Positions 19,374 to 62,584 of a DNA stretch of 64,000 nt are shown in pieces (positions within the stretch are counted from its first letter, which is position 1; each line of letters begins with the position of its first letter). Source of the stretch: an uncultured Chloroflexia bacterium (GTDB taxonomy: Bacteria; Chloroflexota; Limnocylindria; Limnocylindrales; CSP1-4); NCBI GenBank assembly GCA_963778155.1, contig CAVZTK010000021.1, positions 1,162,871 through 1,226,870 on the forward strand, written 5' to 3'. The notes under the pieces were generated by a model that had not been told where the DNA came from, did not search any database, and saw nothing but the letters and a program-made list of their open reading frames with translations. The position numbers and the translations under genes were made by a program.

Positions 19374-19687
19374 CCTCCCATGGATCACAGCATCGCGGCC
19401 AAGTACGCGGCCCGGCCGGCGGCCCATTTCGTGCGTCCCTCGACGCGGGTCAGGGAGCGCCGGCTCGGCCTCCGACCGTCGAGCTCGTTCAACGCACCGG
19501 CCGCGCACGCGACGGTCGTCCGCGGTCCCGAGGTCGCGCCGCTGACTCGCATCCGCGCCGGGTGGCGCGCCATCCAGCCGGCCGTGCCGAGGCGACGCGG
19601 CGGCGGTCGACCGGGTCCGGCCGTGATCATGCAGTGGGCCCGATCCGGGCGCGCCGGCACGCCTCGACCGGGCGCCTCGTCGGCGCC

Positions 19688-20182
19688 GTGGCAAGGCTGA
19701 GGACCTCGACCGCCACTTCCGCCGGCGGGATCGTCGTTCGGTTCGAATCGGGCCAGCCGTGGCTGGTCGTCGGGAGCCGCCGGCGCGAGCGCGATGGCCG
19801 GACGTGGACCCTTCCGAAGGGCACGCCGAACCCGGGCGAGACACGCGAGCAGACCGCGCTCCGTGAGGTCCGCGAGGAGACCGGGCTCGAGGTCCGGATC
19901 ACCGGCCCGCTCGATTCGATCGAGTACTGGTTCGTCCAGTCGGGGACGCGCATCCACAAGACCGTCCACTACTTCCTGATGGAGCCGGTCGGTGGCGACC
20001 TGGCGGCCCACGACCACGAGTTCGACGAGGTCCGCTGGATCACCTTCGAGAGCGCGGGGTCGCTGCTCACGTTCGAGACCGAGCGAGCGCTCGTCGCGCG
20101 GGCCGGCGAGATCCTGGCCACACGATCGGCGCCCGATGACACGGCGCCGACGGCGACGAAGCGCGCCGAGGCCGCCTCGTGA
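19688..20182 (+). CDS. NUDIX hydrolase
   Basis: Nudix box GTPNPGETREQTALREVREETGLEV. GTG 19688 chosen as start (ORF open from 19562). Stop overlaps the gcvT GTG (GTGA). Confidence 0.85.
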   Translation: MARLRTSTATSAGGIVVRFESGQPWLVVGSRRRERDGRTWTLPKGTPNPGETREQTALREVREETGLEVRITGPLDSIEYWFVQSGTRIHKTVHYFLMEPVGGDLAAHDHEFDEVRWITFESAGSLLTFETERALVARAGEILATRSAPDDTAPTATKRAEAAS

Positions 20183-21296
20183 CGGACACCGCCGACGCGA
20201 CCATCCATCTCACGCCGCTGGCCGACGCACATCGCGCCCTCGGCGCCCGCCTGATCGAGTTCAGCGGCTGGCTGATGCCGGTCCAGTACGGCTCGATCCT
20301 CGAGGAGCACCGGACGGTGCGCGAGCGGGTCGGGCTGTTCGACCTGTCGCACATGGGCGAGCTCTACGTGGAGGGGCCCGAATCCGGTCACGCCCTCGCC
20401 GCGGCACTCGTGTCGGACCCGCCGAGCCTCGCGATCGGACGCGCCCAGTACTCGATGATGTGCATGGACGACGGCGGGATCGTCGACGACCTGATCGTCT
20501 ACCGCCTCGGCGAGACCCGCTACCTGGTGGTCGCCAACGCGGGCAACGCGCCGATCGTGTCGGACGCTCTGGCGACGCGGCTGGCCGGGTTCGCGGCCGT
20601 GCTCGACGATCGCTCGCTGGCGACCGGCCTGCTGGCGGTCCAGGGGCCGCGCGCGGTCGGAGACGCTCGCGCCGCTGACCGACGTGGACCTGGGCGCCCT
20701 GCGCTACTACGCGGCCGCCGAGGGCAAGGTGGCCGGTATCGATGCCCTCGTCGCCCGGACGGGCTACACCGGCGAGGACGGGTTCGAGGTGTTCGTCGAC
20801 ACCGCGCGGACCGTCGAGCTGTGGGACGTCCTGCTCGAGGCGGTGCGGGCCCATGACGGGCTGCCGATCGGCCTCGGGGCGCGGGACACGCTGCGGCTCG
20901 AGGCAGGCATGCCGCTGTACGGCAACGAGCTCGACCTCGACACGAACCCGTACGAGGCTGGTCTCGGGCGGGTCGTCAAGCTCGACCAAGCCGGGCGACT
21001 TCGTCGGTCGGGCCGCGCTCGAGAAGGTCGATCGCGACGGACCGGCTCGCCGCCTCGTCGGCCTCATCGTCGAGGGGCGCGGGATCGCCCGCCACGGCTA
21101 CGCGGTCTTCGCCGGGGATCGGCGGACCGGGGTCGTCACCAGCGGGACACAGTCGCCGACGCTGGGCGTCCCGATCGCCATGGCCTACGTCGCGCCGGGC
21201 GACGCCGAGCCGGGTACCGTTGTCGATGTCGAGATCCGCGATGCCCGCGTCCCGGCGCGGGTGGTCGCTCTGCCGTTCTACAAGAGGGGTGCCTGA
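20179..21296 (+). pseudogene. gcvT: Glycine cleavage T protein (aminomethyltransferase), 2 frame breaks (~20659, ~20987)
   Basis: LIEFSGWLMPVQY...LFDLSHMGE...[10 protein letters not shown] | [17 protein letters not shown]...[12 protein letters not shown]...LGRVVKLD | [11 protein letters not shown]...ALPFYKRG, read across three frames. Confidence 0.9.
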
Positions 21297-21300
21297 GCCC

Positions 21301-21685
21301 ATGGTCCCGAGCGATCTGCGCTATACGAAGGACCACGAGTGGGTCCGCATCGACGGGCGACGAGGCGACCATCGGGATCACGGCCTACGCGGCCGACCAG
21401 CTGGGCGACATCGTGTTCGTCGAGCTGCCCGAAGCCGGCCGGACGCTCGACCAGTTCGCGACGTTCGGCGTGGTCGAGTCGGTCAAGGCCGTCAGCGACC
21501 TGTTCGCCCCGCTCAGCGGCGAGGTCGACGCGCGACGAACGCCGACCTCGGCGCCAAGCCCCGAGCTGGTCAACAGCGACCCGTTCGGTGGCGGCTGGAT
21601 GATCCGGCTCCGCGTGTCCGACGCGGGCCAGGTCGACGCCCTGCTCGACGCCGACGCCTACGACGCCCTGATCGCCGCCGGCTGA
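21301..21685 (+). pseudogene. gcvH: Glycine cleavage H protein, about 3 frame breaks (~21357, ~21535, ~21562)
   Basis: [19 protein letters not shown] | [24 protein letters not shown]...[18 protein letters not shown] | ..TNADLGAKP | [16 protein letters not shown]. Lipoyl-lysine motif ESVKA is present. Confidence 0.88.
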
Positions 21686-21692
21686 GCCGTCG

Positions 21693-23092
21693 ATGCCGTA
21701 CGGTCCCCATACCGCCGACGACCGGGCGAGGATGCTCGAGGCGCTCGGACTGACGTCGGTCGACCAGCTGTTCGAGGACATCCCGGTCGAGCTCCGGGCC
21801 TCGCCCCTCGACCTGCCCGAGCCGGAGCCCGAGCTCGAGCTGGCGGCGCGGCTGACCGGGCTGGCCGCCCGCAACCGGACGGATCTGGCCTCGTTCCTCG
21901 GCGCCGGGGTGTATCGCCACTGGTGCCCGCCGGCGGTCGACCAGCTGCTCCTGCGCGGCGAGTGGTACACGGCCTACACGCCGTACCAGCCGGAGATCAG
22001 CCAGGGCACGCTCCAGAGCATCTACGAGTACGAGTCGCTGCTGGCCGAGCTGGTCGACCTCGACGTCGTCTCGGCATCGCACTACGACGGCGCGGCGGCC
22101 ACCGCCGAGGCGGCGCTGATGACCTGTCGCGCCACGCGCCGCGAGCGGGTCCTCGATCTCGCGCGGCGTGCATCCGCACTACCGGGCGACGACGCGGACG
22201 TACTTCGAGGGCGGGCTCGAGCTCGAGGAGATCCCGCTGGTCGACCGATGGCGACGCCGCCGGCACGACCGACCTGGCCGCGCTCGAGCGGATGCTGGCC
22301 GATCCCGGCCGCCCGGTGGCCGGCGTGATCGCCGCCCAGCCCGACTTCCTCGGCCTGCTCGAGCCGATGCCCGAGATCGGGCGGCTGGCGCACGCGGCCG
22401 GCGCCCTGTTCGTCGCCGTCGTCGAGCCGGTCAGCCTGGCGGTCCTCGCCCCGCCCGGCGCCTACGGCGCGGACATCGCCGCCGGCGAGGGCCAGCCGCT
22501 CGGCATCGCGCCCGCAGTACGGCGGCCCGTACCTCGGCATCCTCGCCTCGACCGACGCCCTCGTCCGCCAGATCCCGGGCCGGCTCGTCGGGATGACGAC
22601 CGACCTCGACGGCCGGCGGGCGTTCGTGATGACCATGCGCGCGCGCGAGCAGGACATCCGGCGCGACAAGGCGGCCAGCAACATCTGCACCAACCAGGCG
22701 CTCCTGGCGCTGGCCGCCTCGATCTATCTCGCCACGCTCGGGTCCGCACGGTCTGCGTGACGTCGCCGCGCTCGGCGCGGCGCGGGCCGCCGAGCTCGAG
22801 GCGGCGCTGGCAGCGGTCGGCGTCCCGCGCCTCCACGCGGGTCCGTACCTCAACGAGTTCGTCATCCGCGTGCCCGACGCGCGGACCGTCCACCGGCGGC
22901 TGCTCGACGGCGGGCGTCCTGGCCGGCCTCGTCCTCGCCGACGCCGAGCCGGACGACCCGGACCTCGCCGACGGCCTGCTCGTGTGCGCCACCGAGGTCA
23001 CGACGCCGGCCGAGATCGCGACCTTCGCCGGCGCGCTGTCGGCCGTCCTTGCCGATTTCGACATCCCGGCCGTCGCGGAGCCCGTCCGATGA
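21693..23092 (+). pseudogene. gcvPA: Glycine dehydrogenase (decarboxylating) subunit 1, about 5 frame breaks
   Basis: [19 protein letters not shown]...[14 protein letters not shown] (frame 0), [14 protein letters not shown] (1), [14 protein letters not shown]...[10 protein letters not shown] (2), [12 protein letters not shown]...[10 protein letters not shown] (0), [10 protein letters not shown]...NEFVIRVP (1), VLAGLVLAD...CATEVTT (2). Breaks near 22155, 22246, 22514, 22743 and 22915. Confidence 0.9.
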
Positions 23093-23117
23093 GCCCGCCC
23101 GCGGGCGGGGGCGTGGC

Positions 23118-24621
23118 ATGAGCGTCACCGGCGAGCGCCTCCAGCCGACGCTCTTCGAGCGCAGCCGGCCGGGGCGCGGTGGCGGCAAGATCCCGCACCC
23201 GCCCAAGGACGCGCTCGAGCGGATCCCTGCGGCTGCCCGGCGGGTGACCGGCCCGGCGCTGCCCGAGATGAACGAGCCCGACGTCGTGCGCCACTACGTC
23301 AACCTGTCACAGCTCAACTACGCGGTCGACACCGGGTTCTACCCGCTCGGCTCGTGCACGATGAAGTTCAACCCCAAGCTCAACGAGTGGGCGGCCCGGC
23401 TGCCCGGCTTCGCGGGCCTCCATCCGATGGCGCCGGACGAGGTCGCGCAGGGGACGCTGCAGCTGCTGTGGGAGCTGGAGCGGGCGCTGGCCGAGATCTC
23501 CGGCATGCGCGCGGTCACCCTCCAGCCGGCCGCCGGCGCCCAGGGCGAGCTGACCGGGATCCTGATGATCCGTGCCTACCACCGTTCTCGCGGCGACGCC
23601 CGAGCGCGACCGAGGTCCTCGTCCCGGACTCCAGCCACGGGACGAACCCGGCGACCGCGTCGATGGCCGGCTACCAGACGATCACCGTCCCGTCGGCCGC
23701 GGACGGCGGTGTCGACCTCGACGCGTTCCGCGCGGCGCTCGGGCCGCGGACCGCCGCGGTGATGATCACCAACCCGTCCACGCTGGGCCTGTTCGAGGCG
23801 CGGATCGGCGAGCTGCTCGACGCCGTCCACGAGGCGGGCGCGCTGGCCTACATGGACGGCGCGAACCTGAACGCGATCCTCGGCCGGTTCAAGCCGGGCG
23901 AGGCCGGCTTCGACGTCATGCACTTCAACGTCCACAAGACGTTCTCGACGCCGCACGGCGGCGGCGGTCCGGGCGCCGGACCGGTCGGGGTGGGGGAGAC
24001 CCTGCTCCCGTACCTGCCCGCGCCCGCGCGTCCTGCGCGAGGACGACGGGACGTTCCGCCTCGAGCGGCCCGGGGAGCGGCCGACCTCGATCGGCCGGCT
24101 GCGCAGCTTCGTCGGCAACACGGGCGTCCTCGTGCGGGCGTACGCCTACATCCGTGCGCATGGCGCGTCCGGCCTGCGCGAGGTCAGCGACGACGCGGTC
24201 CTCGCCGCCAACTACCTCAAGCATCGGCTGGCGGGCACGTACGACATCCCGTACGACCGGCGCCTGCAAGCACGAGTTCGTCGCGTCGGCCGCGACCATC
24301 AAGAAGGAGACCGGCGTCCGGACCCTCGACATCGCCAAGCGCCTCATCGACTACGGCTACCACCCGCCGACGATCTACTTCCCGCTGATCGTCGAGGAGG
24401 GGATGCTGATCGAGCCGACCGAGACCGAGTCGGTCGAGACGCTCGACGCGTTCGCCGACGCGCTGATCGCGATCGCCGGCGAGGCCGAGACGTCCCCGGA
24501 CCTCGTCACGAGCGCGCCGCACAGTGCCCCGGTCCGCCGCCTGGACGAGGCGACGGCCGCCCGTCATCCCAACCTGCGCTGGCGCGGGATGACCGGTGCG
24601 GAGACGCCGTGCCCCGATTGA
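23118..24621 (+). pseudogene. gcvPB: Glycine dehydrogenase (decarboxylating) subunit 2, about 4 frame breaks
   Basis: [11 protein letters not shown]...[10 protein letters not shown]...RAYHRSRGD (0), [16 protein letters not shown]...[18 protein letters not shown] (2), [19 protein letters not shown]...ANYLKHRL (0), CKHEFVASA...[23 protein letters not shown] (1). Breaks near 23600-23612 (two), 24027 and 24264. Confidence 0.9.
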
Positions 24622-39259: not shown

Positions 39260-40269
39260 ATGCTCCGGAGCGTGCAGACGCTCACCATCGCGCTCGCCCA
39301 GATCGCGCCGCGGCTCGGGGCGCTCGACGTCAATCTGGCGACGCACCACGCTCTGCTCGACGACGCTCGGGCGAAGGGCGCCGGGCCTGGTCGTGTTCCC
39401 CGAGCTCGGGCTGACCGGCTACCAGCTCCAGGATCTCGCGTCGGAGGTCGCGATGCGGCTCGACGACCCGCGGCTCGCCGAGCTGGCCGATGCGACCCGC
39501 GGGCTGTCGGCGATCGTCTCGTTCGTGGAGGAATCGGCCGATCACCGGCTGTTCATCGCGGCGGCCCTGCTCGAGGACGGTGTGCTCCGCCACGTCCATC
39601 GCAAGCTGTTCCTGCCGACCTACGGCCTGTTCGACGAGCGCCGCTTCTTTGCCCCGGGCGACATGCTGCGGGCCGTCCCGTCGCGGCTCGGGGTCGGACT
39701 TGGGATCGCCGTGTGCGAGGACTTCTGGCACCTGCGCGGTGCCCCAGATCCTCGCCCTCGACGGGGCGCAGATCCTGGTCAACATCTCCTCGTCCCCGGG
39801 GCGTGACCTGGCTGCCACCAACGAGGTCGGGCTCGGGACGGCGACGTCGTGGCGGACGCTGATGCGGACGTACGCCCAGCTGACGACCTCGTTCGTCGTC
39901 TTCTGCAACCGGGTCGGGGTCGACGAATCGATCTCGTTCTGGGGCGGCTCGGAGGTCATCGCGCCGACCGGCCGGGCGGTGTTCAGCGCGCCGCTCTACG
40001 ACGAGGGGCTGTACACGGTCGACGTGTCGCTGGCCGACATCCGCCGCGAGCGCATCGCGCTGCCCCTGCTGCGCGACGAACGGCTCGACCTCCAGGTCCG
40101 CGAGCTCCGCCGGCTGGTCGCCGAGCGGGCCGGGCTGGCGGACGACATGACCGCCGAACGCGGTGCCGAGCCCGGCTTCGACCTGGTGGCCGCCGAGCCG
40201 CCGTCCGAGCCGATCGGGTTCGGGGTGGCCGGCGAGCAGCGACCGCGGCGCGTGGATCGCGGCGCGTGA
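39260..40269 (+). pseudogene. Carbon-nitrogen hydrolase (likely glutaminase partner of NAD synthetase), 2 frame breaks (~39385, ~39733)
   Basis: LTIALAQIAP...LDDARAKGA | LVVFPELGLTGYQLQDL...HRKLFLPTYGLFDERRFF...GIAVCEDFWHL | AVPQILALDGAQILVNISSSPG...FCNRVGVDESISFWGGSEV. Catalytic Glu, Lys and Cys contexts are present. Confidence 0.85.
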
Positions 40270-40299
40270 CCGCGACTCGAGCCGGTCCCGGGTCCCGGC

Positions 40300-41179
40300 G
40301 TGCCGTTCGAGCTGCCCGAGGAGCTGGCGATCGACACCGCTGTCGCCCGACGGGTCATCGCCGAGTTCATCCGCGGTCAGCTCGAGCAGGCCGGCTTCGA
40401 GCGGGCGGTGCTGGGGCTGTCGGGTGGGATCGATTCGGCGCTCGTGGCCTACCTCGTCGCCGAGGCGATCGGGGCGGAGCGACTGCTCGCGGTGATGCTG
40501 CCGTACCGGACGTCGTCGCCGGCCTCGCTGGCGGACGCGGAGATCGGTCGTGGCGGCGCTCGGCTGTCGAAGCGACGTCGTGGACATCACCGCCATGGTC
40601 GATGGCTACTTCGGGACCGGCACGACACCCGGCGCGGAGGGACCCGACAGCACGGTCGCGGGGCCGCTGCGACGGGGCAACTTCGCGGCCCGGATGCGGA
40701 TGGCCGTGCTGTACGACCGCTCGGTGACGTGGGGCGGGCTGGTCGTCGGGACCGGCAACAAGACCGAATCGCTGATCGGCTACACGACCGTGTTCGGCGA
40801 CGCGGCCTGCGCGTTCAACCCGATCGGCGACCTGTACAAGAGCCAGGTCCGGCAGCTCGCCGTCGCGCTCGGTGTCCCCGATGCGATCGTCCGCAAGGCG
40901 CCGTCGGCCGACCTGTGGCCGGGCCAGACCGACGAGCATGAAGGCGGCTTCAGCTACCCGGTCCTCGACCGGCTGCTGTTCTGGCGGGTCGACAAGCGGC
41001 GCTCGGTCGAGGAGATGGTCGCGCTCGGGTTCGATGCGGCGATGGTCGAACGGGTCGACCGGATGGTCGCTGGCGCCGAGTTCAAGCGACAGGTCCCGCC
41101 GATCGCCAAGCTCGGGCCGCGGACGGCCGGCGTCGACTACCTCTACCCGCGGCGCCGGCCGGGATCGTCGCGCGGGTGA
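40300..41179 (+). pseudogene. nadE: NAD+ synthetase, 1 frame break (~40546)
   Basis: GLSGGIDSALVAYL (PP-loop) ...SLADAEI | VAALGCRSDVVDI...[18 protein letters not shown]...[11 protein letters not shown]. Confidence 0.9.
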
Positions 41180-42091
41180 CGGCCGCGGGTCCGACAGCGG
41201 CGGGGTCCTGTACGTCGTGGCGACGCCGATCGGGAACCTGGCCGACATCACGCTGCGGGCGCTCGAGGTCCTGCGCGACGTGCCGCTCATCGCCGCCGAG
41301 GACACGCGCCACACGCGCCGACTGCTCGACCACCACGCCATCGCGACCCGGATGACCAGCTACCACGCGCAGAGCGACGCGGGGCGGACGGCCGCGCTGC
41401 TCGAGCACCTGCGCGGCGGCGCGGACCTCGCGCTCGTCACCGACGCCGGGACGCCGTCGGTCAGCGACCCGGGAGGCGAGCTCGTGGCCGCATGGGCCGA
41501 CGAAGGCGGCACGGTCGTGCCGGTGCCCGGGGCGTCGGCCGTCCTCGCTGCGGTCGCCGGGTCGCGGGGTCGCCGGGCCACGCTGGGCGTTCGAGGGGTT
41601 CCTGCCACGGTCCGGACGCGAGCGACGCGAGCGACTGGCACGGATCGCCGCCGACGACCGCGGCACGATCCTGTACGAGGCGCCGGCGCGCGTCGCCGCC
41701 ACGCTGCGCGACCTGTCCGAGGCGTGCGGGCCGGATCGGCCCGGCGCTGTCTGTCGCGAGCTGCACCAAGCTCCACGAGTCGATCGAGCGCGGGCCGCTG
41801 GGCGAGCTGGCGGCAGCTGCCGCCGAGGGCGGCCGCATACCTGCCCGGGGCGAGTTCGCCATCGTGGTCGGTGACTGGCGTGGCGACCGACCGGCCGACA
41901 CGGCCGACCAGGAGTCTGCGCTGGCGGCCGCCCGGGCAGAGGTCGAGGCGCTCGTGGCCGCGGGAGTCGCACGTGGGGACGCCGCTCGACGGGTGGCGGC
42001 CGCCACGGGCCTGCCGCGGCGGAGCCTCTACGGTCTCGAGCCGGCCTTGTCGGATGACCGAGGGACCGCCCGGACCGAACGACGACCATGA
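41176..42091 (+). pseudogene. rsmI: 16S rRNA (cytidine1402-2'-O)-methyltransferase RsmI, 2-3 frame breaks (~41204?, ~41564, ~41764)
   Basis: [23 protein letters not shown]...[10 protein letters not shown]...[13 protein letters not shown]...[13 protein letters not shown] | [17 protein letters not shown]...ILYEAPARV | [15 protein letters not shown]. The candidate GTG 41176 overlaps the nadE stop but is out of frame with the VLYVV segment. Confidence 0.85.
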
Positions 42092-44903: not shown

Positions 44904-44931
44904 TCGGCGGCATGCCGGCTCGCCCGACCCG

Positions 44932-46596: not shown

Positions 46597-46603
46597 TCCC
46601 GGG

Positions 46604-49404: not shown

Positions 49405-50712
49405 ATGCCGGCCACTGTCATCGTCGGGCTGCAGTGGGGCGACGAGGGCAAGGGCAAGACGACGGACTTCCTGGCCGAGCAGGTCGCGATGGTCGTCCGC
49501 TACCAGGGCGGCGACAACGCCGGTCACACGGTCGTCAGCGGCGACGAGGTGTTCAAGCTGCGCCTGACGCCGTCGGGCGTGCTCTACCCGCACATCACCT
49601 CGGTCATCGGCAACGGGGTCGTGGTCAACCCCGTCACCCTGATCGGCGAGCTCGACATGCTCGCCTCGCGTGGCATCGACGTGTCGCGCGTCCGGGTCAG
49701 CCGCAGCGCGCACGTGATCATGCCGTACCACCTCGCGCTCGACGCGGGCAACGAGTCCCGACTCGGCGAGGCCAAGGTGGGCACGACCGGGCGCGGGATC
49801 GGCCCGACCTATGGCGATCGGGCGTGGCGGCTCGGCCTGCGGATGGAGGACCTGCTCGACGAGGTCGTCCTGCGCGAGCGGATCGAGCGCGCGCTCCCCG
49901 ACAAGAACCTCGTCCTGTCGGCGATGGGTCGCCCGACCTTCGAGGTCGAGGCGCTGCTCGACGACGCGCTCGGCTGGGGCGCCCGGCTGCGCGACCACCT
50001 CGACGACACGACCTGGCTCGTCCAGGCGGCGCTCGCCCGCGGCGAGCACGTCCTGCTCGAGGGCGCCCAGGGCACGCTGCTCGACCTCGACCACGGCAGC
50101 TATCCGTACGTGACCTCGTCGAACCCGGTCGCCGGCGGTGCCTGCACCGGCGGCGGGATCGGCCCGCTCCAGGTGGACGAGGTCATCGGGGTCATGAAGG
50201 CGTACTCGACGCGGGTCGGCGCCGGGCCGTATCCGACCGAGCTGCTCGACGGCATCGGTGCCGGGATCGCCGAGCGCGGGCACGAGTTCGGGACCGTCAC
50301 CGGGCGACCGCGCCGGGTCGGCTGGTTCGACGCCGTCCCGCTGCGCTATGCGGTGGCCGTGAACAGCGTCAGCAGCATCATGCTCAACAAGCTCGACATC
50401 CTGTCGGGGATCGAGACCATCGGCGTGTGCGTCGCGTACGAGATCGACGGCCGGCGCGTCGAGGTCTGGCCGTCGAGCGGGGCGGCGCTCTCTCGCGCGA
50501 CGCCGATCTACGAATCGTTCGCCGGCTGGCAGCAGCCGATCCACGACATCCGCTCGCTGGCCGACCTGCCGGAGAACGCCCGCCGCTACGTGTCCGCCAT
50601 CGAGGCGCACGCGGGGGTGCCGATCGTCCTCGTGTCGGTCGGACCCGAGCGCACGCAGACGATCGAGCGCGCGTGGCGGCCGATGCGCAATCGCCCGGGA
50701 TTGTCCGCGTGA
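49405..50712 (+). CDS. purA: Adenylosuccinate synthetase
   Basis: [35 protein letters not shown], and an uninterrupted 435 aa. Confidence 0.95.
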
Positions 50713-50720
50713 GCCTCGTC

Positions 50721-52073
50721 ATGCCGACCCGGATCCTCGTCGTCGGGGGCGGCGCCCGCGAGCATGCGCTCGCCTGGAAGCTGGCCGGCCGAGCCGGGCG
50801 TCAACGAGGTCATCGTCGCGCCGGGGAGTGCCGCCATCGCGGCCGAGCCGCGCGTCCGCCGGGCGCCCGGCGTCGACCCGCTCGACCCGGCGGCGGTCGT
50901 CGCGGTCGCCCGGCGCGAGGCCGCCGAGCTGGTCGTCATCGGGCCGGAGGCGCCGCTGGCGGCCGGCGTCGCCGACGCGCTTCGCGATGCAGGCTTCGCC
51001 GTCTTCGGGCCGTCGCAGGCGGCCGCCCGGATCGAGTCGAGCAAGGCGTTCTGTCACGACGTCGCGCGTGCGGCCGGCGTCCGGATGGCGCGCGCGTGCC
51101 GCCTTCGATGACGCGTCCGCGGCGATCGCCTTCGCGACCGAGCTGGCCGGCGGCGGGCGCGGCGTCGTGATCAAGGCGGACGGCCTGGCGGCAGGCAAGG
51201 GCGTGGTCGTCTGCGATACGCCGGCGGAGGCCGAACGCGCCATCGAGCGATTGGCGACGACCGCCGGTCTGGAGCGATCGGCGGAAAGCGGTGCCTGGGT
51301 CGTCGTCGAGGAGCGCCTGCACGGCCGGGAGGCGAGCGTCATCGCGTTGTGCGACGGCCGGGACGCGGTGGCACTCCCGCTCGCGCGCGACCACAAGCGG
51401 CTGCTCGATGGTGACGTCGGTCCGAACACCGGCGGGATGGGCGCCTCCAGCCCGCTGCCCGACCTCCCGGATGCCGGCGCCGAGGAGCTGCTCGCCGCCT
51501 TCCACCGACCGATCCTCGCCGAGCTGGCCCGTCGCGGCATCCCGTTCCGTCGGCGCCCTCTTCGCGGGGCTGATGCTGACCGATGACGGTCCGGTCCTGC
51601 TCGAGTGCAACGCGCGCTTCGGCGATCCCGAGACGCAGGCGATCCTGCCGCGTCTCGCGGTCGCGCTCGGACCGATCCTGCTGGCGTGTGCGCGCGGCGA
51701 CCTGGGGCCGGCGCTTCGCGGCGCGGCCGGAGACGGCGCGGCGCTCCTGCCGACCCTGCCAGGGGCCGCGGTCGCGATCGTCCTGGCCGCAGCCGGCTAC
51801 CCGGACGCGCCACGCGCGGGCGACCCCATCGCGGGCCTTGCCGAGGCGGCCGCGACCGGCGCCCTCGTCTTCCACGCCGGGACGACGCGCGACCCGGATG
51901 GCACGGTCCGGACCGCCGGCGGCCGGGTCCTGACCGTCGTCGGTCGCGGCCCGGATATCGCCGCCGCCCGCTTCGCGGCTGCCGCGGCCGTGGACCTGAT
52001 CCATGCCCCGGGCCTTCAGCATCGGACCGACATCGGGGCCGACGTGGCCGAAGCGACGGCGGGGATCCGGTGA
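50721..52073 (+). pseudogene. purD: Phosphoribosylamine--glycine ligase, 3 frame breaks (~50788, ~51097, ~51551)
   Basis: [22 protein letters not shown] | [17 protein letters not shown]...[16 protein letters not shown] | AAFDD...VVIKADGLAAGKGVVV...GPNTGGMGA | ALFAGLMLTDDGPVLLECNARFGDPETQ...GGRVLTVVG. Confidence 0.9.
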
Positions 52074-53428
52074 TCCCGCGCTACACGCTCCCCGAGATGG
52101 GCGCGATCTGGTCGGACGCCGCTCGATTCGAGGCCATGCTCCGCGTCGAGCTCGCGGTCGCCCGGGCTCAGGCGGCCCGCGGGCAGATCCCGCCCGAGGC
52201 GCTGACCGCGCTCGAGACGAAGTCGCGCGTGGACGTCGACCGGATCGCCGAGATCGAGCGCACGACCGACCACGACATCATCGCCTTCGTCAGCCAGGTC
52301 GCCGAGACCGTCGGGCCGGACGGCCGCTACCTGCACCTCGGCCTGACCAGCAGCGACGTCGTCGACACCGGCCTCGCGCTCCAGCTCCGGGCGGCGGGGG
52401 AGCGCCTGCTGCTCGACGTCGACCGGCTGCTGGCCGTTCTCGTGACCCGGGCGCGCGCCGAGGCGACGACGGTGATGATGGGCCGCACCCACTCGGTCCA
52501 CGCCGAGCCGACGACGTTCGGGCTCAAGCTCGCCGGCTGGGCGTTCGAGGTCGAGCGCGGGCGGGTGCGCCTGGCCGCGGCCGTCGACGAGATCGGGACC
52601 GGCAAGATCTCGGGGCCGGTCGGGACCTACAGCCATCTCGAGCCGGACATCGAGGCCGAGGTCCTGGGCGCGCTCGGCCTCCATGTCGACCCGGTCAGCA
52701 CCCAGATCGTCCAGCGCGACCGACACGCCGCCCTGCTGACCGCCATCGCCATCGTCGGCGGCTCGCTGGAGCGCTTCGCGACCGAGATCCGGAACCTCCA
52801 GCACACGGAGATCGGCGAGGTCCAGGAGCCGTTCAAGGCCGGCCAGAAGGGCTCGTCGGCGATGCCCCACAAGCGGAACCCGATCCTGTCCGAGCGGATC
52901 GCCGGGCTGGCCCGCCTCCTCCGCGGCTACGCCCACACCGCGCTCGAGGACCAGCCGCTCTGGCACGAGCGCGACATCAGCCACTCGAGCGCGGAGCGGG
53001 TGATCCTGCCCGATGCCACGATCCTGCTCGATTACATGCTCGTCCGGATGACCGGCCTGGTCGAGGGCCTCCTCGTCCGCTCCGAGCGGATGCGCGAGAA
53101 CATCGCCCGCGGCCTCGGGCTCCACGCGTCGTCGCGCGTCCTGCTCGCGCTCGTCGACGACGCCTCGATGAGCCGCGAGGATGCCTACGCGATCGTCCAG
53201 CGCGCGTCGCTGCGCGCCGCCGACGAGGGCGCCTCGCTGCGCGACCTGCTCGCGGTGGACCCGGTCGTCGCCCAGCGATTGTCGCTGTCCCGTCTCGACG
53301 CGTGCTTCGACGACGCGCTGTTCCTGCAGCACGTGCCCGACGTCATCGCGCGGCTCGACCGGCTCGACCGGGTCGCGATCCAACCGCCACCCACACAGAC
53401 GGAGGTCCACGATGGTGCTGGCCGCTGA
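52070..53428 (+). CDS. purB: Adenylosuccinate lyase
   Basis: Uninterrupted 452 aa with [52 protein letters not shown] overlaps the purD stop (GTGA). Confidence 0.95.
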
Positions 53429-54302
53429 ATCCTTCCTGCGCTCGGGCAAGGTGCGCGACCTGTACGCGCTCCCGGACGGACGGCTCGCGCTCGTGGCCTC
53501 GGACCGGATCTCGGCCTTCGACGTCGTCCTGCCGACGGCGATCCCGGACAAGGGCAAGGTCCTGACCGGGCTGTCGCGGTACTGGTTCGGCGTGACGGGC
53601 GGCGATCGTCCCGAACCACCTCCTCGCGACGGACGCGTCGTTCGATGACGAGCTCCGCGGCCGGGTCATGGTCTGCCGGCCGACCGACGTCGTGCCCATC
53701 GAGGCGGTCGTCCGCGGCTACCTCGCCGGCTCCGGCTGGAAGGAGTACCGGGCGAGCGGCACGGTCTGCGGCATCGCGCTCCCGTCCGGTCTCCGCGAGA
53801 GCGACCGCCTGCCCGAGCCGATCTTCACGCCGGCGACCAAGGCCGAGCAGGGCGAGCACGACGAGAACATCGACTTCGAGACGATGGCCCGCCTCGTCGG
53901 CGCGCGAGCTCGCCGCTCGGGTGCGGGCGCACGCGATCGCGCTGTACGAGTTCGCGGCGGCCAGGACCGCAGCGGCCGGGATCCTGCTGGCCGACACGAA
54001 GTTCGAGTTCGGGATCGACCGCACGACCGGAGCAGCTCCTGCTCATCGACGAGGCGCTGACGCCCGACTCGTCGCGCTTCTGGGACGCCTCGACCTACGA
54101 GGCCGGCCGGGCTCAGGCCAGCTTCGACAAGCAGTTCGTGCGCGACTGGCTCGAGACCCAGCCGTGGGACAAGACCGCGCCGGGGCCGGAGCTGCCGGCC
54201 GACGTCGTCGACGGCACGCGGGCGCGCTACGTCGAGGCGTACGAGCGGATCACCGGCGCGAGCTTCGCGCGCTACCTCGAGGAGGACGTCATCGCCCCAT
54301 GA
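53412..54302 (+). pseudogene. purC: SAICAR synthetase, 3 frame breaks (~53600, ~53904, ~54031)
   Basis: [30 protein letters not shown] | [10 protein letters not shown]...[12 protein letters not shown]...[15 protein letters not shown] | [16 protein letters not shown]...[10 protein letters not shown] | [18 protein letters not shown]. Confidence 0.9.
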
Positions 54303-54592
54303 GCAGCTTCCGGTTCGCGGTCAACGTCACGCCAAAGCCCGGGATCCTCGATCCGGCCGGGCCGCGCGGTCGAGGGCAGCGCTCGGCCACCTCGGGATCG
54401 ACGGGATCCACGACGTCCGCGTCGGGCGGCGGGTCGAGCTGACGGTCGAGGCCGGGGATGAGGCGGAGCGCCCGGCCGATGGTCGAACGGCTCGCCACCG
54501 AGCTGCTGTCGAACCCGCTCATCGAGGTGTTCGCGATCGAGCCGCTCGGCGCGGCATCGTCCGCCGTCGCGGCCGGGGCAGGGGAGGGCTGA
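54299..54592 (+). pseudogene. purS: FGAM synthase PurS subunit, 3 frame breaks (~54362, ~54377, ~54468)
   Basis: [21 protein letters not shown] | RAVEG | [30 protein letters not shown] | [26 protein letters not shown]. Confidence 0.8.
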
Positions 54593-54594
54593 GC

Positions 54595-55337
54595 GTGCCG
54601 GTCCGCATCGGCGTCGTCGTCTTCCCGGGCAGCAACTGCGACCGCGACACGGTCCACGCGCTCGAGCTGGCCGGCGCGGAGCCGGTCGTCCTGTGGCACG
54701 AGCAGGCATCGCTCGAGGGCGTCGCGGCGGTCGTGCTGCCCGGCGGGTTCGCCTACGGCGACTACATCCGGGCCGGCGTGATCGCCCGGTTCAGCCCGGT
54801 GATGCGGTCGGTGGCGGCGTTCGCCGCCGAGGGCGGCCTGGTGCTCGGCATCTGCAACGGCTTCCAGGTCCTCGCCGAGGCCGGGCTCGTGCCCGGGGCG
54901 CTGCTGCGGAACGACACGTTGCGGTTCGCCGGCCACGACGTCCGGATCGCGGCCGAGCGACTCGACACGCCGTTCACGCACGCGCTCGACGCGCGCCGGC
55001 CGCTGCGGATGCCCGTCGCCCACGGGGAGGGGCTGTACTACGCGGACGACGCCACGCTCGATGCGCTCGAACGCGACGGTCAGGTGCTGTTCCGCTACGT
55101 CGACACAGCCGGGACCGAGGCGACGCCCCGGCGACCCGGCCAACCCGAACGGATCGCTGCGGGCCATCGCCGGGGTGCAGCAACGCGGCCGGCAACGTGG
55201 CCGGCCTGATGCCGCACCCGGAACGGGCGTCCGAGACGGTCCTCGGCTCCGACGACGGCTTCGGGATCGTCCGGTCGCTGGTCCTGAGCGCGGCGCGCGC
55301 CATCAACGAGCCGGCCGTCGCGGCGGGGTCCCGATGA
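54595..55337 (+). pseudogene. purQ: FGAM synthase glutaminase subunit PurQ, 2 frame breaks (~55128, ~55178)
   Basis: [16 protein letters not shown]...[10 protein letters not shown]...GICNGFQVL...FRYVD | [13 protein letters not shown] | [16 protein letters not shown]. Confidence 0.9.
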
Positions 55338-57730
55338 CCGTGGCCGAGCGACCGGTCGAGCCGCTCCATCGCCGGCTGGGCGTCACCGACGACGAGCTCG
55401 ACGCCATCCGCGAGCGGCTCGGCGGTCGCGATCCGAACGACCTCGAGCTCGCGATGTTCAGCGTGATGTGGAGCGAGCACTGCTCGTACAAGAGCTCGAA
55501 GCCGCTGCTCCGGACGCTCCCGACCGCCGGCGAGGGGGTCGTCGCCGGACCCGGCGAGAACGCCGGGGTCATCTCGATCGGCGACGGCCTGGCCGTCGCG
55601 TTCAAGATCGAGTCGCACAACCACCCGTCGGCCGTCGAGCCGTACCAGGGCGCGGCGACCGGTGTCGGCGGCATCCTGCGCGACATCTTCACGATGGGCG
55701 CCCGCCCGATCGCGGTGCTCGACGCGCTCCGCTTCGGGGAGCCGGGCTCCGCCCGGACGCGACATCCTCGTCGACGGCGTCGTCCGGGGCGTCGGCGGCT
55801 ACGGCAACTGCGTCGGTGTCCCGACGGTCGGCGGCGAGCTCGTGTTCGATCCGAGCTACGGCGGCAACCCGCTGGTCAACGTGATGGCCATCGGTCTGCT
55901 CGAGGAACGGCTGCTGACGCTGGCGGCGGCGCCCGGGCCCGGCAACCTCGTGGTGCTGTTCGGGTCGGCGACCGGCCGCGACGGGATCGGCGGGGCGTCC
56001 GTCCTCGCCAGCGCGACCTTCACGGACGACGAGACCTCGGGCGATGGCTCGCGGAGCGTCGCCTCGGACCTCGGTGGGTGATCCGCAGGCGCAGGTGCAG
56101 TCCAAGCGCCCGTCGGTCCAGGTCGGCGACCCGTTCGCCGAGAAGCTGCTCATCGAGGCGAGCCTCGAGCTCATCGAGCGCGACCTGGTCGAGGGCCTCC
56201 AGGACCTCGGCGCCGGCGGCATCACCTGCGCCACGTCCGAGACGGCCGACCGGGCCGGGACCGGGATCGCGGTCGACCTCGACGCCATCCCGCGCCGCGA
56301 ACCGGGTCTCGAGCCGTTCGAGGTGATGATCTCCGAGTCGCAGGAGCGGATGTGTGCCGCCGTCCTGCCCGACAAATGGGATGCGGTCCGTGACGTGTGC
56401 GAGCGCTGGGGCCTTCCGGTGGCGATCATCGGCCGGGTCACCGCCGACGGCGACATCACGGTCGTGACCGGTGGCCTCGAGCCGGACGGCCGCCTGGCGC
56501 GGGGCGCCCGGGTCCTGGCCCGGATCCCGGCCCGCGCGCTGACCAGCGACGCGATCGTCCACCAGCGCGTCGCCGCCGCCCCGACCCACAGCCGCGGCGC
56601 CCCGGCGCCGGGTGCGCCGGCGGCGGTCAGCGACCGGCTTCCCGAGCGCGGGATGGATCCGGGCGCGGTCCTCGTGGCGCTCCTCGGGTCGGCCAACCTC
56701 GCCTCGCGTCACGCCGTCTTCGAGCAGTACGACTCGACGGTCGGCGCGGACACGGTCGCCGGCCCGGGTCGCGGCGCCGCCGTCCTGCGCGTGCGGGGCA
56801 CGAGCAAGGCCCTGGTCGCGACGACGGATGGCAACCAGGCGATCGGCGCGGTCGATCCCTGGCTCGGCGCGGCGTGGTCGGTCGCCGAGGCGACCCGCAA
56901 CGTGTCGATCACCGGCGCCCGGCCGCTGGGCGTGACGAACTGCCTCAACTACGGCGACCCGACCCGACCGACGGCGTTCTGGCAGCTGTCGGAGGCCGTG
57001 CGCGGGGTCGGCGACGCGTGCCGCGCGCTGGGGCTCCCGGTGACCGGCGGCAACGTGTCGCTCTACAACGAGTCGCCGGCCGGGGCCATCGCCCCGACCG
57101 CGGAGATCGGCGTGGTCGGACTGCTCGACGACGTCGACACCCTCGTCGGCCCTGCGTTCGACCGCGTCCACGACGCCGTCGTGCTCGTCGGCGAGGTGGT
57201 CCCGGGCCTGGTCGGGTCCGCCTACACGGCGCTGGCGGGTGGCGCGAGCGAGGACGACCCGCCGGCCCTCGATCTCGGTCGCGAGGCGGCGACTCCAGGC
57301 GTTCGTCCGCGAGGCGATCGCCCGCGGCCTGGTCGCGTCGGCGCAGGACGTGTCGGGCGGCGGCCTCGCCGTCGCGCTCGCCGAGTGCGCGATGTGGGGC
57401 GGCCTCGGTGCGACGGTCCGCATCGCGGTCGAACACTCGCCGGCGGTCGACCTGTTCGGCGAGAGCCCGTCGCGGCTGGTCCTGTCGTGCCGCCCACGCT
57501 ATGCCGCCGCGCTCGAGCTGCTGGCACGCCAGCACGGCCTGCCGGTCGCGACCGTCGGCACGGTCGGCGGCGACCGCCTCGTGGTCGAGCTGTCGATGGC
57601 CGGCGCGACCGGCAACGTCGAAGACCGCGGCGGCGGCGTGGCCGATGCGCTCGAGGTCCCGCTGCGCGACCTCCGCCATGCCTGGGACCACGGCCTCGCC
57701 CGCGCTCTCGGCTGGGAGGGCCACTCCTGA
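55334..57730 (+). pseudogene. purL: FGAM synthase subunit PurL, 3 frame breaks (~55760, ~56079, ~57291)
   Basis: [18 protein letters not shown]...[24 protein letters not shown] | [14 protein letters not shown] | [14 protein letters not shown]...ISESQERM...GVTNCLNYGDP...GGNVSLYNE | LQAFVREAI...AQDVSGGGLAVALAE. Confidence 0.92.
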
Positions 57731-59183
57731 TGTGCGGCGTGTTCGGGGTCGTGCTGCCAGGTGGCGAGCCCAACGAGGCCGCCTCGATCGCCGCGCTCGG
57801 GCTGTTCGCGCTCCAGCACCGCGGCCAGGAATCGGCCGGTCTGGCGGTCAGCGACGGCGAGCAGCTGATGCTCTACAAGGACCTCGGCATGATCAGCTCG
57901 GTCCTCGACGAGCGGCGGCTGCCGAGCCTGCGCGGCCAGCTGGCCATCGCCCATTGCCGCTACTCGACGACCGGCTCGACGATCTGGGAGAACGCCCAGC
58001 CGACCTATCGGCTCGGGCCGCGGCGCGCTCTCGCGATCGGCCACAACGGCAACCTCGTCAACACGCGCGAGCTGCTCGACCAGCTCACGGGCGGCCGCGC
58101 CCGGCTGCCGGCGTCGACGGACACGGAGCTCCTGACCGCGCTCCTGGCCGACGAGCCGGCGGCCGACACGGTCGAGGCGCTCATGCGCGTCCTGCCGCGC
58201 GTCCGCGGCGCCTACAGCCTGGTCATCCTCGACGAACGTCGGGTCATCGGGGTCCGCGACCCGTTCGGCTTCCGGCCGCTCGTCCTCGGCCGGCTGCCGC
58301 GGGCCAGCGCGAACGGCGATGACGACGGGCTGTGGCAGGCGACGACGCGGACGCCGGCTGGTGCCTGTCGTCCGAGACGGCCGCGCTCGACATCGTCGGC
58401 GCCGAGTACGTCCGCGACGTCGAGCCCGGCGAGATGGTCATCCTCGAGCGCGGCCAGGCGCCGCGGTCGGTCCGCTTCGCGCCGGCGACGCCCGCCCTGT
58501 GCGTCTTCGAGCTGATCTACTTCGCCCGCCCCGACTCGTACATGGAGGGCCGCAACCTGTACGAGGCGCGACGCCGGATGGGCATCCAGCTCGCCCTCGA
58601 GCATCCGGCCGACGCCGACCTCGTGATGCCGGTCCCGGACACCGGCGCCCCGGCCGCGGCCGGCTACGCCGAGGCGTCCGGGCTGCCGTACCGCGAGGGG
58701 ATGTACCGCAATCGCTACACCGGCCGGACGTTCATCCAGCCGTCGGCGGCGCTGCGCCACCGGGGCGTGACCATCAAGCTCAACCCGCTGCGCGAGGTGG
58801 TCAACGGCAAGCGGCTGGTGGTCGTCGACGACTCGATCGTGCGCGGGACCACGACGAAGCAGATCGTCGCGCTGCTGCGCAAGGCCGGCGCGACCGAGGT
58901 CCACGTCCGCATCAGCGCGCCGCCGATCTACCACCCGTGCTTCTACGGCATCGACACGCAGATCGAGACCGAGCTGATCGCGGCGACCCACACGGAACCC
59001 GAGATCCGCGAGTTCATCGGCGCCGATTCGCTCGGCTACCTGTCGATCCGCGGCGTGCTCGCCGCCCTCGACCTGCCGTACGAGCGGTTCTGCTTCGCCT
59101 GCTTCGACGGCCACTACCCGGAGCCCGTGCCGTACGACGCCGCGAGCCGCAAGTTCATGCTCGAGGAGGCGGTGACCCGCTGA
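57730..59183 (+). pseudogene. purF: Amidophosphoribosyltransferase, frame change near 58325-58335
   Basis: MCGVFGVVLP...LQHRGQESAG...AIAHCRYSTTG...IGHNGNLVN | GWCLSSETAALDIVGAEYVRDVEPGE...VVDDSIVRGTT...CFYGIDT. Confidence 0.92.
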
Positions 59184-60341
59184 TGGCCGGGGCGAAGGGC
59201 GTCTCCGACCGCACCGCCTACCTGACGTCCGGCGTCGACGTCGCGGCCGGCGAGCGGGCCGTCGACCTGATGCGGGACCACGTCGAGTCGACCCGCCGGC
59301 CCGAGGTCGTCGGCGGGCTCGGCGGGTTCGGCGGCGCGATCGTCGATCCCGGCGGGCTATCGCGAGCCGCTGCTCGTCTCCTCGACCGACGGGGTCGGGA
59401 CGAAGACGGCGATCGCCCCGGCGCTGGACCGCTACGACACGATCGGCATCGACCTCGTCGCGATGTGCGCCGACGACGTCGTCTGCTGCGGCGCCGAGCC
59501 GCTGGCCTTCCTCGACTACGTCGCCGTCGGGCAGCGTCGTGCCCGAAGGGGTCGCCGAGCTGGTCGGATCGGTCGCCGCCGGCTGTCGCGAGGCCGGCTG
59601 CGCGCTCGTCGGCGGCGAGACGGCCGAGCATCCGGGGCTGATGGACGACGACGCGTTCGACCTGGCGGGCTGCTGCCTCGGCGTCGTCGAGCGCGACGAC
59701 GTCATCGACGGCTCCGCGGTCCGCGCCGGCGACGCGATCCTCGGCCTGGCGGCGTCCGGGCTGCACGCGAACGGCTTCTCGCTCGTCCGCGCGCTCGTCG
59801 CGCAGTGGGACCTCGATCTGATCGGCCGTACCAGGTGCAGCTGCGGCGGACGCTCGGCGACGCCGGGCGCGACGCGGCCATCGCGGCCGAGCCCGAACGA
59901 GGCGCTGGCGACCCTCGGCGACGTGCTGCTGACCCCGACCCGGATCTACGCGCGGGCGGTCCTCGCCGCCCGGGCCGCCTCCGGGCCGCCGGCGCGGACG
60001 TCCACGGCCTGGCCCACATCACCGGCGGCGGCCTGCCCGGGCAACGTCCCGCGGGCGCTGCCCGACGGCCTCGGCGGCCCGCGTCGACCCGGGTCGCTGG
60101 CCGATGCCGTCGGTCATGCGCGCTGTTCGGGGCGCTCGGCGGCCTCGACGACGAGGAGCTCCGGGCGACGTTCAACGGCGGGCTCGGGATGGTCGTCGTC
60201 CTGCCGCGAGCGGCCGTGCCCGCGGCGACGGCCGCCATCGAAGGGTTCGGGATCCCGTCGCGGTCGTCGGCGAGGTCGTGGACTCGGCGACGGTCGATGG
60301 CCGGCGCTACGCTCGAGGCGACCCTCGAGGGTCTGGCGTGA
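59183..60341 (+). pseudogene. purM: AIR synthetase, about 10 frame changes
   Basis: [37 protein letters not shown]...[22 protein letters not shown]...[63 protein letters not shown] and VAVVGEVV are each found in alternating frames. Confidence 0.88.
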
Positions 60342-60362
60342 CCGCGCGTCGGGCCGCCGGAC

Positions 60363-60948
60363 GTGGCCGGGCGGGTCGCGGTCGGCGTCTCGGGCGGCGG
60401 CTCGAACCTGCGCGCGCTGGTCGCCGCGGCCGATCGGGGCGAGCTCGGCGGCGACATCGCGCTCGTCTTCGCCGACCGGGCCTGCCCGGCGCTCGACTGG
60501 GCGGCGGAGCAGGGGATCGAGACGGCCCTGGTCCCGGGCGGTGACGACGCGACGCTGGCCGCCACGCTCGAGCGCCGTCGGCGCCGACGTCGTCGTCCTC
60601 GCCGGCTACATGCGCATCGTCGGGCCGGCGGTGCTCGGCGCGTTCGCCGGTCGGATCCTCAACACCCACCCGTCGCTCCTGCCGGCGTTCCCGGGCGCGC
60701 ACGCGGTCGGCGACGCGCTCGCCCACGGCGTGCCCGTGACCGGCTGCACGGTCCATCTCGTCGACGAGACCCTCGACGGCGGCCCGATCGTCGCCCAGGA
60801 GCCCGTGCGCGGTCCTGCCCGGCGACGACGAGGCGACGCTCCACGACCGGATCCGGGCGGTCGAGCACCGGCTCCTGCCGCGGGCGGTCGCCCTCGCTGC
60901 TCGCCGAGGCGCTCGCCGTCGACGGGCGCCACGTGACGCTGGACCTGA
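60363..60948 (+). pseudogene. purN: GAR formyltransferase, at least 3 frame breaks; 3' boundary unresolved
   Basis: [16 protein letters not shown]... | [17 protein letters not shown]...[14 protein letters not shown]...[17 protein letters not shown] | [22 protein letters not shown] | [13 protein letters not shown]. Confidence 0.78.
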
Positions 60949-62584
60949 CCGCGCGGACGCGCGCGTCCCCGTCCCTCGCCGCGCGCTGCTGTCCGTCTAC
61001 GACAAGACCGGCCTCGTCGAGCTCGGTCGCGGCCTCGTCGCCCACGGCTTCGAGCTCGTCTCGACCGGGGCGCACCGCGCGGGCCCTGCGCGACGCCGGC
61101 TTGCCGGTCACCGACGTCGCCGCCGTGACCGGCTTCCCGGAGATGCTCGACGGGCGGGTCAAGACGCTCCATCCGCGGATCCACGCCGGGCTCCTCGCCG
61201 ACCGCCGTCGGGCCGACCACCGGCGCCAGCTGATCGCCGCGGCGATCGCGCCGTTCGAGCTCGTCGTCGGCAACCTGTACCCGTTCGCGGAGGCGCTGGA
61301 GCGACCGGGGATCACGTTCGACGAGCTGGTCGAGGAGATCGACATCGGCGGGCCGTCGATGGTCCGCGCGGCCGCCAAGAACCACGCGAACGTCGCGATC
61401 GTGACGTCGCCGGCGCGGTACGACGACGGTCCTCGCCGCGCTCGACAGCGAGGGCGGCCTCGACGAGCGGCGCCGCGCGCACGCTGGCGATCGAGGCGTT
61501 CCGCCACACCGCCGCGTACGACGCCCGGATCGCCTCGGAGCTGCCTGCCCGGATGGTCGCGGCCGGCCTCCTCGACGGCGCCGCGACGGACCCGTATCCG
61601 GCGTCGCTGACGATCGGGCTCGAGAAGGTCGAGACGCTGCGCTACGGGGAGAACCCGCACCAGCCGGCAGCCCGCTATCGCCGGCCCGGGGCGACATTGG
61701 TGGATGGTCCGTTCGCGTCGCGCGCCGCCGCTCCAGGGCAAGGCGCTGTCGTACAACAACGTCCTCGACGCTGCCGCAGCCTCGGCGCTCGGGCGGGCCC
61801 TGCGCGGGCCGGGCGTCGTCATCGTCAAGCACACGAATCCGTGCGGCGCCGCCGAACGGACGACGCTCGCTCGATGCGTGGGATGCGGCGCTCGCGGCCG
61901 ACCCCGTCAGCGCCTTCGGCGGGGTCGTGGCACTGACCCGGCCGGTGGATGGCCCCGTCGCCCAGCCGGCTCGTCTCGATCTTCCTCGAGGTCGTCGTCG
62001 CGCCGGCGTTCGATCCTGACGCGCTCGAGGTCCTCGCCACCAAGCCGAACCTGCGGGTCGTGCTCGACGAGGCGCTCGCGGACGACGCCCCGCCGGCGGC
62101 GGCCCCAGACGCGACCGGCTCGATCCGGACAGCCGGCGGCGCGGTCCTCGTGACGGCCCCCGACGTCGCCGCAGACGACCCGGCGACGTGGGTCTGTGCG
62201 AGCCACCGCCCGCCGAACGACGCGGAACGGCTCGACCTCGACCTCGCCTGGCGGCTCGTCCGCGGCGTGACCTCGAACGCGATCGTCCTCGTCCGCGATC
62301 GCCGGCTGGTCGGCTTGGGCAGCGGCCAGACCTCGCGTGTCGACGCGGCCCGCCAGGCGGTCGCCAAGGCGCACGCGATGCTCGGCGCCGGCGCGACGAC
62401 GGGCGCCTCCTGTGGCTCGGACGCGTTCTTCCCGTTCCCTGACGCGGTCGAGGTCTGCCTGGCCGCCGGCGTCACCGCGTTCGCACAGCCCGGCGGCTCG
62501 GTGCACGACGCCGACGCGATCGCGGCCGTCGATGCCGCCGGCGCCACGATGGTCATGACCGGCACGCGCCACTTCCGCCACTGA
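60933..62584 (+). pseudogene. purH: Bifunctional AICAR formyltransferase/IMP cyclohydrolase, about 6 frame breaks; 5' boundary unresolved
   Basis: [16 protein letters not shown]... | [13 protein letters not shown]...[14 protein letters not shown]-like...[16 protein letters not shown] | ...AFRHTAAYD... | GENPHQ | [10 protein letters not shown]...[11 protein letters not shown] | ...SAFGGVVAL | FLEVVVAP...SNAIVLV...GLGSGQTSRVD...MVMTGTRHFRH. Confidence 0.88.

Follow-up and report, generated by a model that had tools for sequence, protein, structure and literature searches.

Has an uncultured bacterium of the Limnocylindrales (Chloroflexota) lost most of its de novo purine synthesis, or does the assembly of its genome only make it look so? 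The question is posed by a 64,000-nucleotide (nt) stretch of contig CAVZTK010000021.1 (assembly GCA_963778155.1), which we call the window and which contains a purine biosynthesis (pur) gene cluster. As the first-pass annotation of this DNA had stated, purA and purB are uninterrupted open reading frames (ORFs), and we find no window-specific insertion or deletion (indel) in either; all other genes of the cluster carry frame changes. The same annotation pointed out that these two genes form the branch from inosine monophosphate (IMP) to adenosine monophosphate (AMP), and that the pattern resembles decay of a single pathway. Our analysis argues for a different explanation: the frame breaks are very probably consensus or base-calling errors of a long-read assembly, not mutations, and correspond to no real biological feature. 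The technology was most likely Nanopore-only. The events are private to the window, uniform in size and biased towards insertions; they respect neither pathway nor gene borders, no decay accompanies them, and their signature recurs in other long-read metagenome-assembled genomes (MAGs).

The frame breaks are private, short and biased towards insertions

We followed the reading frame through the window with a plot of GC content at third codon positions (GC3) and a seven-state frame hidden Markov model (HMM). GC content is 72% across the window and GC3 reaches 0.9-1.0 in coding frames; plot and model together revealed repeated frame switches between 50.7 and 62.0 kb. Relatives for comparison were found with the purB product as query, in a scan in which each species was represented by a single genome. 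The matches were exclusively Limnocylindria/Limnocylindrales MAGs from soil and sediment, and 80 of their loci (L001-L080), chosen by their purB match, were used to compare the cluster. The closest, L001, encodes a PurB with 98% amino-acid identity and shares 94% nucleotide identity with the window over 20 kb. Indels were called by aligning the 49.3-62.7 kb region to L001 and to two further references, L002 (88% nucleotide identity) and L005 (84%).

This alignment yielded 38 frame-changing, window-specific indels inside pur genes, between positions 50789 and 61961, a count that includes two bases missing from an insert in purL. All 38 are absent from L001, L002 and L005, and these three references agree with one another at every such position. 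Thirty-seven events are exactly 1 nt long (28 insertions and 9 deletions), the remaining one being a 2-nt deletion. Among the relatives themselves, length differences in pur genes are mostly multiples of three nucleotides (3, 6, 9, 12, 18); the window-specific indels never are. Bacterial pseudogenes are biased towards deletions of varied size, and the pur events display neither the variety of sizes nor the deletion bias of such a natural spectrum: their approximately 3:1 excess of insertions runs in the opposite direction.

The breaks are spread over the cluster as three each in purD, purC and purS, two in purQ, four in purL, one in purF, ten in purM and twelve in purN-purH, with none in purA or purB (Table 1). 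The first-pass annotation was thus right that every other gene of the cluster is affected, at 1 (purF) to 12 (purN-purH) indels per gene. It listed purN and purH as separate broken genes; broken they are, but they form one fused reading frame. The three purS insertions appear in all three pairwise alignments, and two of the four purL events are 1-nt deletions (~56042 and ~56053), both within the loop insert of that gene. purA lies upstream of the noisy block, whose first event is at 50789. At the other end, the last event in purN-purH falls at 61961 and the terminal 620 nt are clean. The event rate is uneven: in 50.8-59.3 kb one event occurs every ~500 nt, in 59.3-62.0 kb one every ~120 nt. 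An earlier estimate of about 1 break per 250 nt comes roughly close to the overall measurement of about 1 per 294 nt, but fails as a uniform rate. Indels per kilobase rise with GC content (Spearman 0.53, p = 7e-6), and the kilobases holding purB have a GC content of 0.72-0.73, compared with 0.76 in their neighbours.

We named the genes with NCBIfam profiles, run on the proteins after private indels had been removed by reference to the alignment. The products of purA, purD, purB, purC, purS, purQ, purL, purF, purM, purN and purH all exceed the NCBIfam equivalog cut-off along the full profile length. The frame-corrected purN-purH encodes a single protein, matched by TIGR00639 at residues 12-191 (PurN) and by NF002049 at residues 213-744 (PurH).

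Errors in homopolymer runs, which one would expect as a cause, did not account for the events, most of whose contexts lie outside homopolymers. L001 is a long-read MAG too; at the site matching window position 51361 it has a private 1-nt insertion of its own in purD, which splits the ORF.

The quiet patch around purB crosses gene borders

The indel-free stretch that contains purB, at 51548-53602, takes in the 3' 526 nt of purD and purB in full, ends ~190 nt into purC, and crosses two gene borders. The first-pass annotation had placed it at ~51560-53590, reaching ~520 nt back into purD and ~190 nt forward into purC, in close agreement with our measurement. It had also suspected a block of better consensus, a view we share: the stretch ignores gene borders, and the same breaks occur in unrelated genes.

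Taken at face value, the pattern would reflect real and recent pseudogenisation of one pathway, in a purine auxotroph that lives on salvage and in which selection keeps only purA and purB for the conversion of IMP to AMP. Some salvage-dependent bacteria do keep purA and purB without de novo synthesis, and the window resembles such auxotrophs in its intact IMP-to-AMP branch and apparently broken de novo branch. purA and purB are, moreover, the only two of eleven activities without a frameshift. When we scattered 38 simulated events uniformly over 11.2 kb, 2.4% of runs contained a gap of 2055 nt or more and purB escaped in only 1%, which favours this explanation and agrees with an earlier Poisson estimate that put a clean purB below 2%. 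With the local rate in place of the uniform one, a gap of at least 2055 nt appeared in 25% of simulations, and the clean run ceases to be the improbable event for which it had been taken. Against this explanation, too, the clean stretch cuts through purD and purC. We discarded one further observation, that purB shows 0 switches in the 80 relatives: it is uninformative because the loci were picked by their purB match.

Genes outside the pur cluster are broken in the same way

The frame HMM marked two further regions of the window with dense frame switching (noisy blocks A and B in Table 1; block C is the pur region). In block A the broken genes are, by their NCBIfam names, a Rossmann-fold gene, a NUDIX hydrolase, gcvT, gcvH, gcvPA and gcvPB. 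This block was aligned to 3-5 short-read metagenome contigs, from which the events of the window are absent. In block B, where polarity was set by one reference (L002) together with the frame analysis, nadE and rsmI are affected. The three blocks together hold 50 insertions and 10 deletions of 1 nt, and at least eight non-purine genes in the window carry the same type of break. The blocks are about 2.5-11 kb long and are separated by 7-18 kb of nearly error-free sequence. Thus, 25-39 kb, with two peptide ABC transporter operons, contains at most three candidate shifts; 1-18 kb, with the dcw cluster and aconitase, contains between one and three; and the genes of 44-50.7 kb are free of them. The apparent restriction of the breaks to the pur cluster accordingly did not hold up, with two other, unrelated regions of the window affected and purA lying outside the noisy block.

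The isolated candidate shifts that the frame HMM placed outside the blocks are at ~1836, ~10585, ~30899 and ~32328. The first of these (~1836) would change the frame of murG some 310 nt after its start; the remaining three affect two ABC transporter genes and one for a molybdopterin oxidoreductase.

That gcvT, gcvH, gcvPA, gcvPB, the NUDIX gene, nadE and rsmI share the same breaks speaks directly against loss of the purine pathway in particular. Unrelated genes are broken as well and the clean stretch ignores gene borders; the pattern is therefore very probably an artefact and not pathway decay.

Breaks in several unrelated gene sets could also mean real decay without pathway preference, in a genome, a hypermutator or a relic-DNA population gathering frameshifts in many genes. 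This we consider exceedingly improbable. The breaks are confined to blocks, with stretches of 7-18 kb between them nearly free, and if real they would inactivate essential genes (nadE, rsmI and probably murG). The indels that result from defective mismatch repair fall mainly in homopolymer runs, unlike the events here, which mostly lie outside them. Neither nonsense codons nor a nonsynonymous excess beyond that in purA and purB accompany the frameshifts, and the same +1 bias recurs in 28 long-read MAGs that are independent of one another and belong to different species.

The broken genes show no signs of decay

Once frame-corrected, the proteins of nine pur genes are 90.2-98.3% identical to those of L001. 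No internal stop occurs in the ~3,480 codons of the frame-corrected pur genes. A per-site count had flagged a nonsense substitution in purQ, which we rejected, as codon-level translation shows no internal stop. GC3 is unchanged, at 0.93-1.0 in every pur fragment. With substitutions assigned to lineages by reference to L001 and L002, the window-specific changes in the broken genes comprise 167 synonymous and 107 nonsynonymous ones, and third codon positions hold 169 of 274 (62%), where about one third per position would be expected in unconstrained sequence. Nonsense codons, a ratio of nonsynonymous to synonymous substitution rates near 1 and loss of codon bias, the signs of relaxed selection, do not appear in the broken pur genes. 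The comparison of substitutions with relatives, which the first-pass annotation had proposed as a test of decay, likewise returned none: the ratio of nonsynonymous to synonymous changes (N/S) exceeds that of L001 by no more than it does in purA and purB.

Real purine auxotrophs differ from the window in these respects. Their loss or decay proceeds by deletions, stops and relaxed selection and is restricted to the pathway; here, 1-nt insertions prevail and unrelated genes are hit as well. The absence of nonsense codons, the maintained GC3, the mostly synonymous substitutions and the insertion bias of the 1-nt events (28:9), unlike the deletion bias of pseudogenes, all oppose pathway decay, and neither hpt nor apt was seen when the translations of the 64-kb window were read by eye. 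Pathway-specific decay, for which the first-pass annotation had left room, is hard to reconcile with breaks in the gcv genes, the NUDIX gene, nadE and rsmI, with the lack of internal stops and with substitutions gathered at third positions; we attach next to no probability to it.

Long-read assemblies of relatives share the signature

If the breaks were errors of assembly, they should follow sequencing technology, and the 80 relatives' loci provide this external control. We searched them (tblastn) with ten proteins of L002, a short-read assembly that served as the reference. Among loci of the Nanopore-only MAGs designated 'MFD', 28 of 43 have pur frame switches; +1, the prevailing direction in the window, accounts for 88 of their 96 switches. 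Only 2 of 37 loci with short-read-assembler contig names have switches, in one case where the contig ends and in the other beside a run of N (Mann-Whitney p = 4e-8 for the difference). Because short fragments go unreported, tblastn undercounts the breaks in the window (10 instead of 38), and we used these counts solely for comparison between loci. At the nucleotide level, private 1-nt insertions number 21 in L063, 9 in L080 and 14 in L031, and the corresponding deletions 1, 3 and 0; their contexts are similarly GC-rich and outside homopolymers. No private 1-nt insertion occurs in L002 or L015, both short-read loci. That other long-read MAGs have the signature of the window and that L002 and L015 lack it is a further point against decay of the purine pathway.

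The affected MFD loci include L006, L012, L017, L021, L031, L044, L061, L063, L067, L076 and L080, with the purN-purH region the worst. Many MFD MAGs of the clade are the species representatives in the searched genome collection.

Such findings have precedents. The MFD-LR MAGs were assembled with Flye from Nanopore reads only and received a single round of Medaka polishing; the catalogue's authors acknowledge that MAGs of lower coverage contain Nanopore-associated errors (PMC12313526). That indels fragment genes in long-read assemblies is well recognised, and tools such as Kastor have been made to deal with it (PMC12007338). The window fits the description of these long-read 'pseudo-pseudogenes' (PMC12007338, PMC12313526): private 1-nt indels split conserved ORFs and are absent in short-read relatives, and the breaks follow assembly technology, not gene function. 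The artefact is of a kind already known, namely apparent pseudogenes in long-read assemblies. It departs from the usual Nanopore error, a miscalled homopolymer length, in consisting mostly of insertions outside homopolymers, arranged in kilobase-scale blocks. The problems described for the MFD-LR MAGs also concern mainly low-GC MAGs rich in long homopolymers (PMC12313526), and this clade has 72% GC.

An intermediate explanation would have nearly all indels as errors and one or a few as genuine, for example the purF deletion at 58337 or the 2-nt deletion at 60357. The latter lies near the start of purN, in a variable N-terminal region where relatives differ in length, and among 38 events any single one could be genuine. 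Every short-read relative, however, has all genes intact, and the events at 58337 and 60357 are indistinguishable from the noise around them. We regard a genuine indel among the 38 as unlikely.

Organisation of the cluster and its surroundings

With the private indels removed, the cluster resembles the Bacillus-type pur operon, for which we take the gene order of B. subtilis as the basis of comparison. It has the same gene set and the order purC-S-Q-L-F-M-N-H, and its formylglycinamidine ribonucleotide (FGAM) synthase is split into purS, purQ and purL. It differs in that purA and purD precede purB, purE and purK are absent from the cluster, and purN and purH are fused. The fusion (~745 amino acids) is found in 37 of 45 scorable Limnocylindria relatives, in addition to the frame-corrected window. 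Most of the eight exceptions are MFD long-read loci whose motif spacing deviates by 1-2 nt, and one contains a run of N. Through the fusion, the two transformylases of the pathway that depend on folate would share a single polypeptide.

purL contains an extra segment of 64 nt, which corresponds to a natural loop insert (Table 1). The PurL insert, 20-22 codons long (ETSGRWLAGASPR...SKRPSVQ), sits after a conserved TFTDD and before the next conserved motif. It is also present in L029, L035, L057 and L059, which are more distant relatives; the closest relatives are without it, as are 63 of 68 motif matches across the relatives' loci. In L035 it has an additional local duplication. The core of the insert is well conserved at the nucleotide level. 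We considered whether the segment might be a disruptive insertion or an assembly junction and rejected this on account of its nucleotide-level homology to the loop insert of the four relatives. Neither the window nor the first 80 loci hold a second copy. A hairpin-forming mobile mini-element was rejected as well: four copies, when folded, gave z = -2.3, +1.1, -1.6 and -0.5, with no consistent structure.

Elsewhere, Rfam and tRNA scans of the window returned tRNA-Val(CAC) at 10302-10378 as the sole match, and no riboswitch upstream of the pur cluster. This tRNA gene follows a complete-looking dcw/fts cluster in window positions 1-10300, whose genes, read by eye from the translations, are the 3' end of murD, ftsW, murG, murB, ddl, ftsQ, ftsA, ftsZ and yggS. 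A 2.7-kb segment at 43893-46650 is common to the window and L001; L002 has ~65 nt in its place. The segment holds two paralogous cysteine-rich ORFs (43935-44903 and 45487-46596), both with an N-terminal CPSC...CPSC and a C-terminal CCxxCxxDDG...LPHxxCPxGLCxCxW pattern. The first of the two, the one that was scanned, has no NCBIfam match.

Table 1. Positions of the pur genes, the noisy blocks and associated features in the window. Indels are those specific to the window; bit scores are from NCBIfam profiles.
Feature	Position	Strand	Observations
purA, adenylosuccinate synthase	49405..50712	+	Intact ORF, no indel; NF002223 573.9 bits (cut-off 402)
purD	50721..52073	+	Three 1-nt insertions (50789, 51097, 51547); frame-corrected TIGR00877 408 bits, end to end
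Indel-free stretch	51548..53602		2055 nt inside the noisy block; flanking events 51547 and 53603
purB, adenylosuccinate lyase	52070..53428	+	Intact ORF, no indel; TIGR00928 468.1 bits (cut-off 326.2)
purC	53412..54302	+	Three 1-nt insertions (53603, 53904, 54033); frame-corrected NF010568 413.7 bits
purS	54299..54592	+	Three 1-nt insertions (54357, 54378, ~54469); NF004630 84.8 bits
purQ	54595..55337	+	Two 1-nt insertions (55122, 55181); NF002957 299.2 bits
purL	55334..57724	+	1-nt insertions at ~55766 and 57293; NF002290 895.7 bits
purL extra segment	56040..56103	+	64 nt; natural 66-nt (22-codon) loop insert minus two bases
purF	57730..59183	+	Single 1-nt deletion at 58337; TIGR01134 486.6 bits
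purM	59183..60341	+	Ten 1-nt indels (7 insertions, 3 deletions); TIGR00878 363.5 bits
purN-purH, one fused frame	60338..62584	+	12 indels: 8 insertions and 4 deletions (three of 1 nt, one of 2 nt)
Noisy block A	18717..24262 (within 18417-24550)	+	16 1-nt insertions, one 2-nt insertion, no 1-nt deletion
Noisy block B	39381..41764	+	nadE (glutamine-dependent NAD+ synthase) and rsmI; six 1-nt insertions, one 1-nt deletion relative to L002
Noisy block C	50789..61961		38 in-gene events, ~1 per 294 nt; densest at 59.3-62.0 kb, GC up to 0.78

Discussion

How might such a pattern come about? The affected blocks may be poorly polished segments, with low or mixed-strain coverage, and the most GC-rich sequence may have added to the difficulty of reaching a correct consensus. 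purD to purH would then lie inside one error block by chance, with purA just upstream of it and purB in a 2-kb quiet patch.

Several observations weigh against an origin in sequencing error. The N/S of window-specific changes in the broken genes is 0.64, compared with 0.26 in L001, and a short period of relaxed selection would give the same excess. purA and purB show a similar one (0.35 compared with 0.08 in L001), and it is largest where indels are densest; substitution errors together with local misalignment could explain it at least as well as relaxed selection. At a uniform rate, the gap at purB is unusual (P = 0.01-0.02). The events lie mostly outside homopolymers, unlike the textbook Nanopore error. 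GC content alone was rejected as the cause and would act as a contributing factor, given that 2-4 kb has a GC content of 0.75 and is clean. Finally, the technology is read from the error signature alone.

Were the frameshifts real after all, we would be looking at a free-living soil member of the Limnocylindria that has only just begun to lose de novo purine synthesis, and with it the folate-linked glycine cleavage system and nicotinamide adenine dinucleotide (NAD) synthase, with purA and purB kept for salvage, and at an unusual, insertion-biased mutational process. We hold this to be barely credible.

Errors of long-read consensus, which we favour, leave a recognisable signature that could be screened for or corrected: private +1 insertions, clustered in blocks and enriched in the GC-richest segments. 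Judged from the frame-corrected sequence, the organism most likely has a complete and functional purA-purD-purB-purC-purS-purQ-purL-purF-purM-purNH cluster, like all its relatives. Metabolic reconstructions and pseudogene counts based on such high-GC long-read MAGs would falsely infer auxotrophies for purines and NAD and a defect in glycine cleavage.

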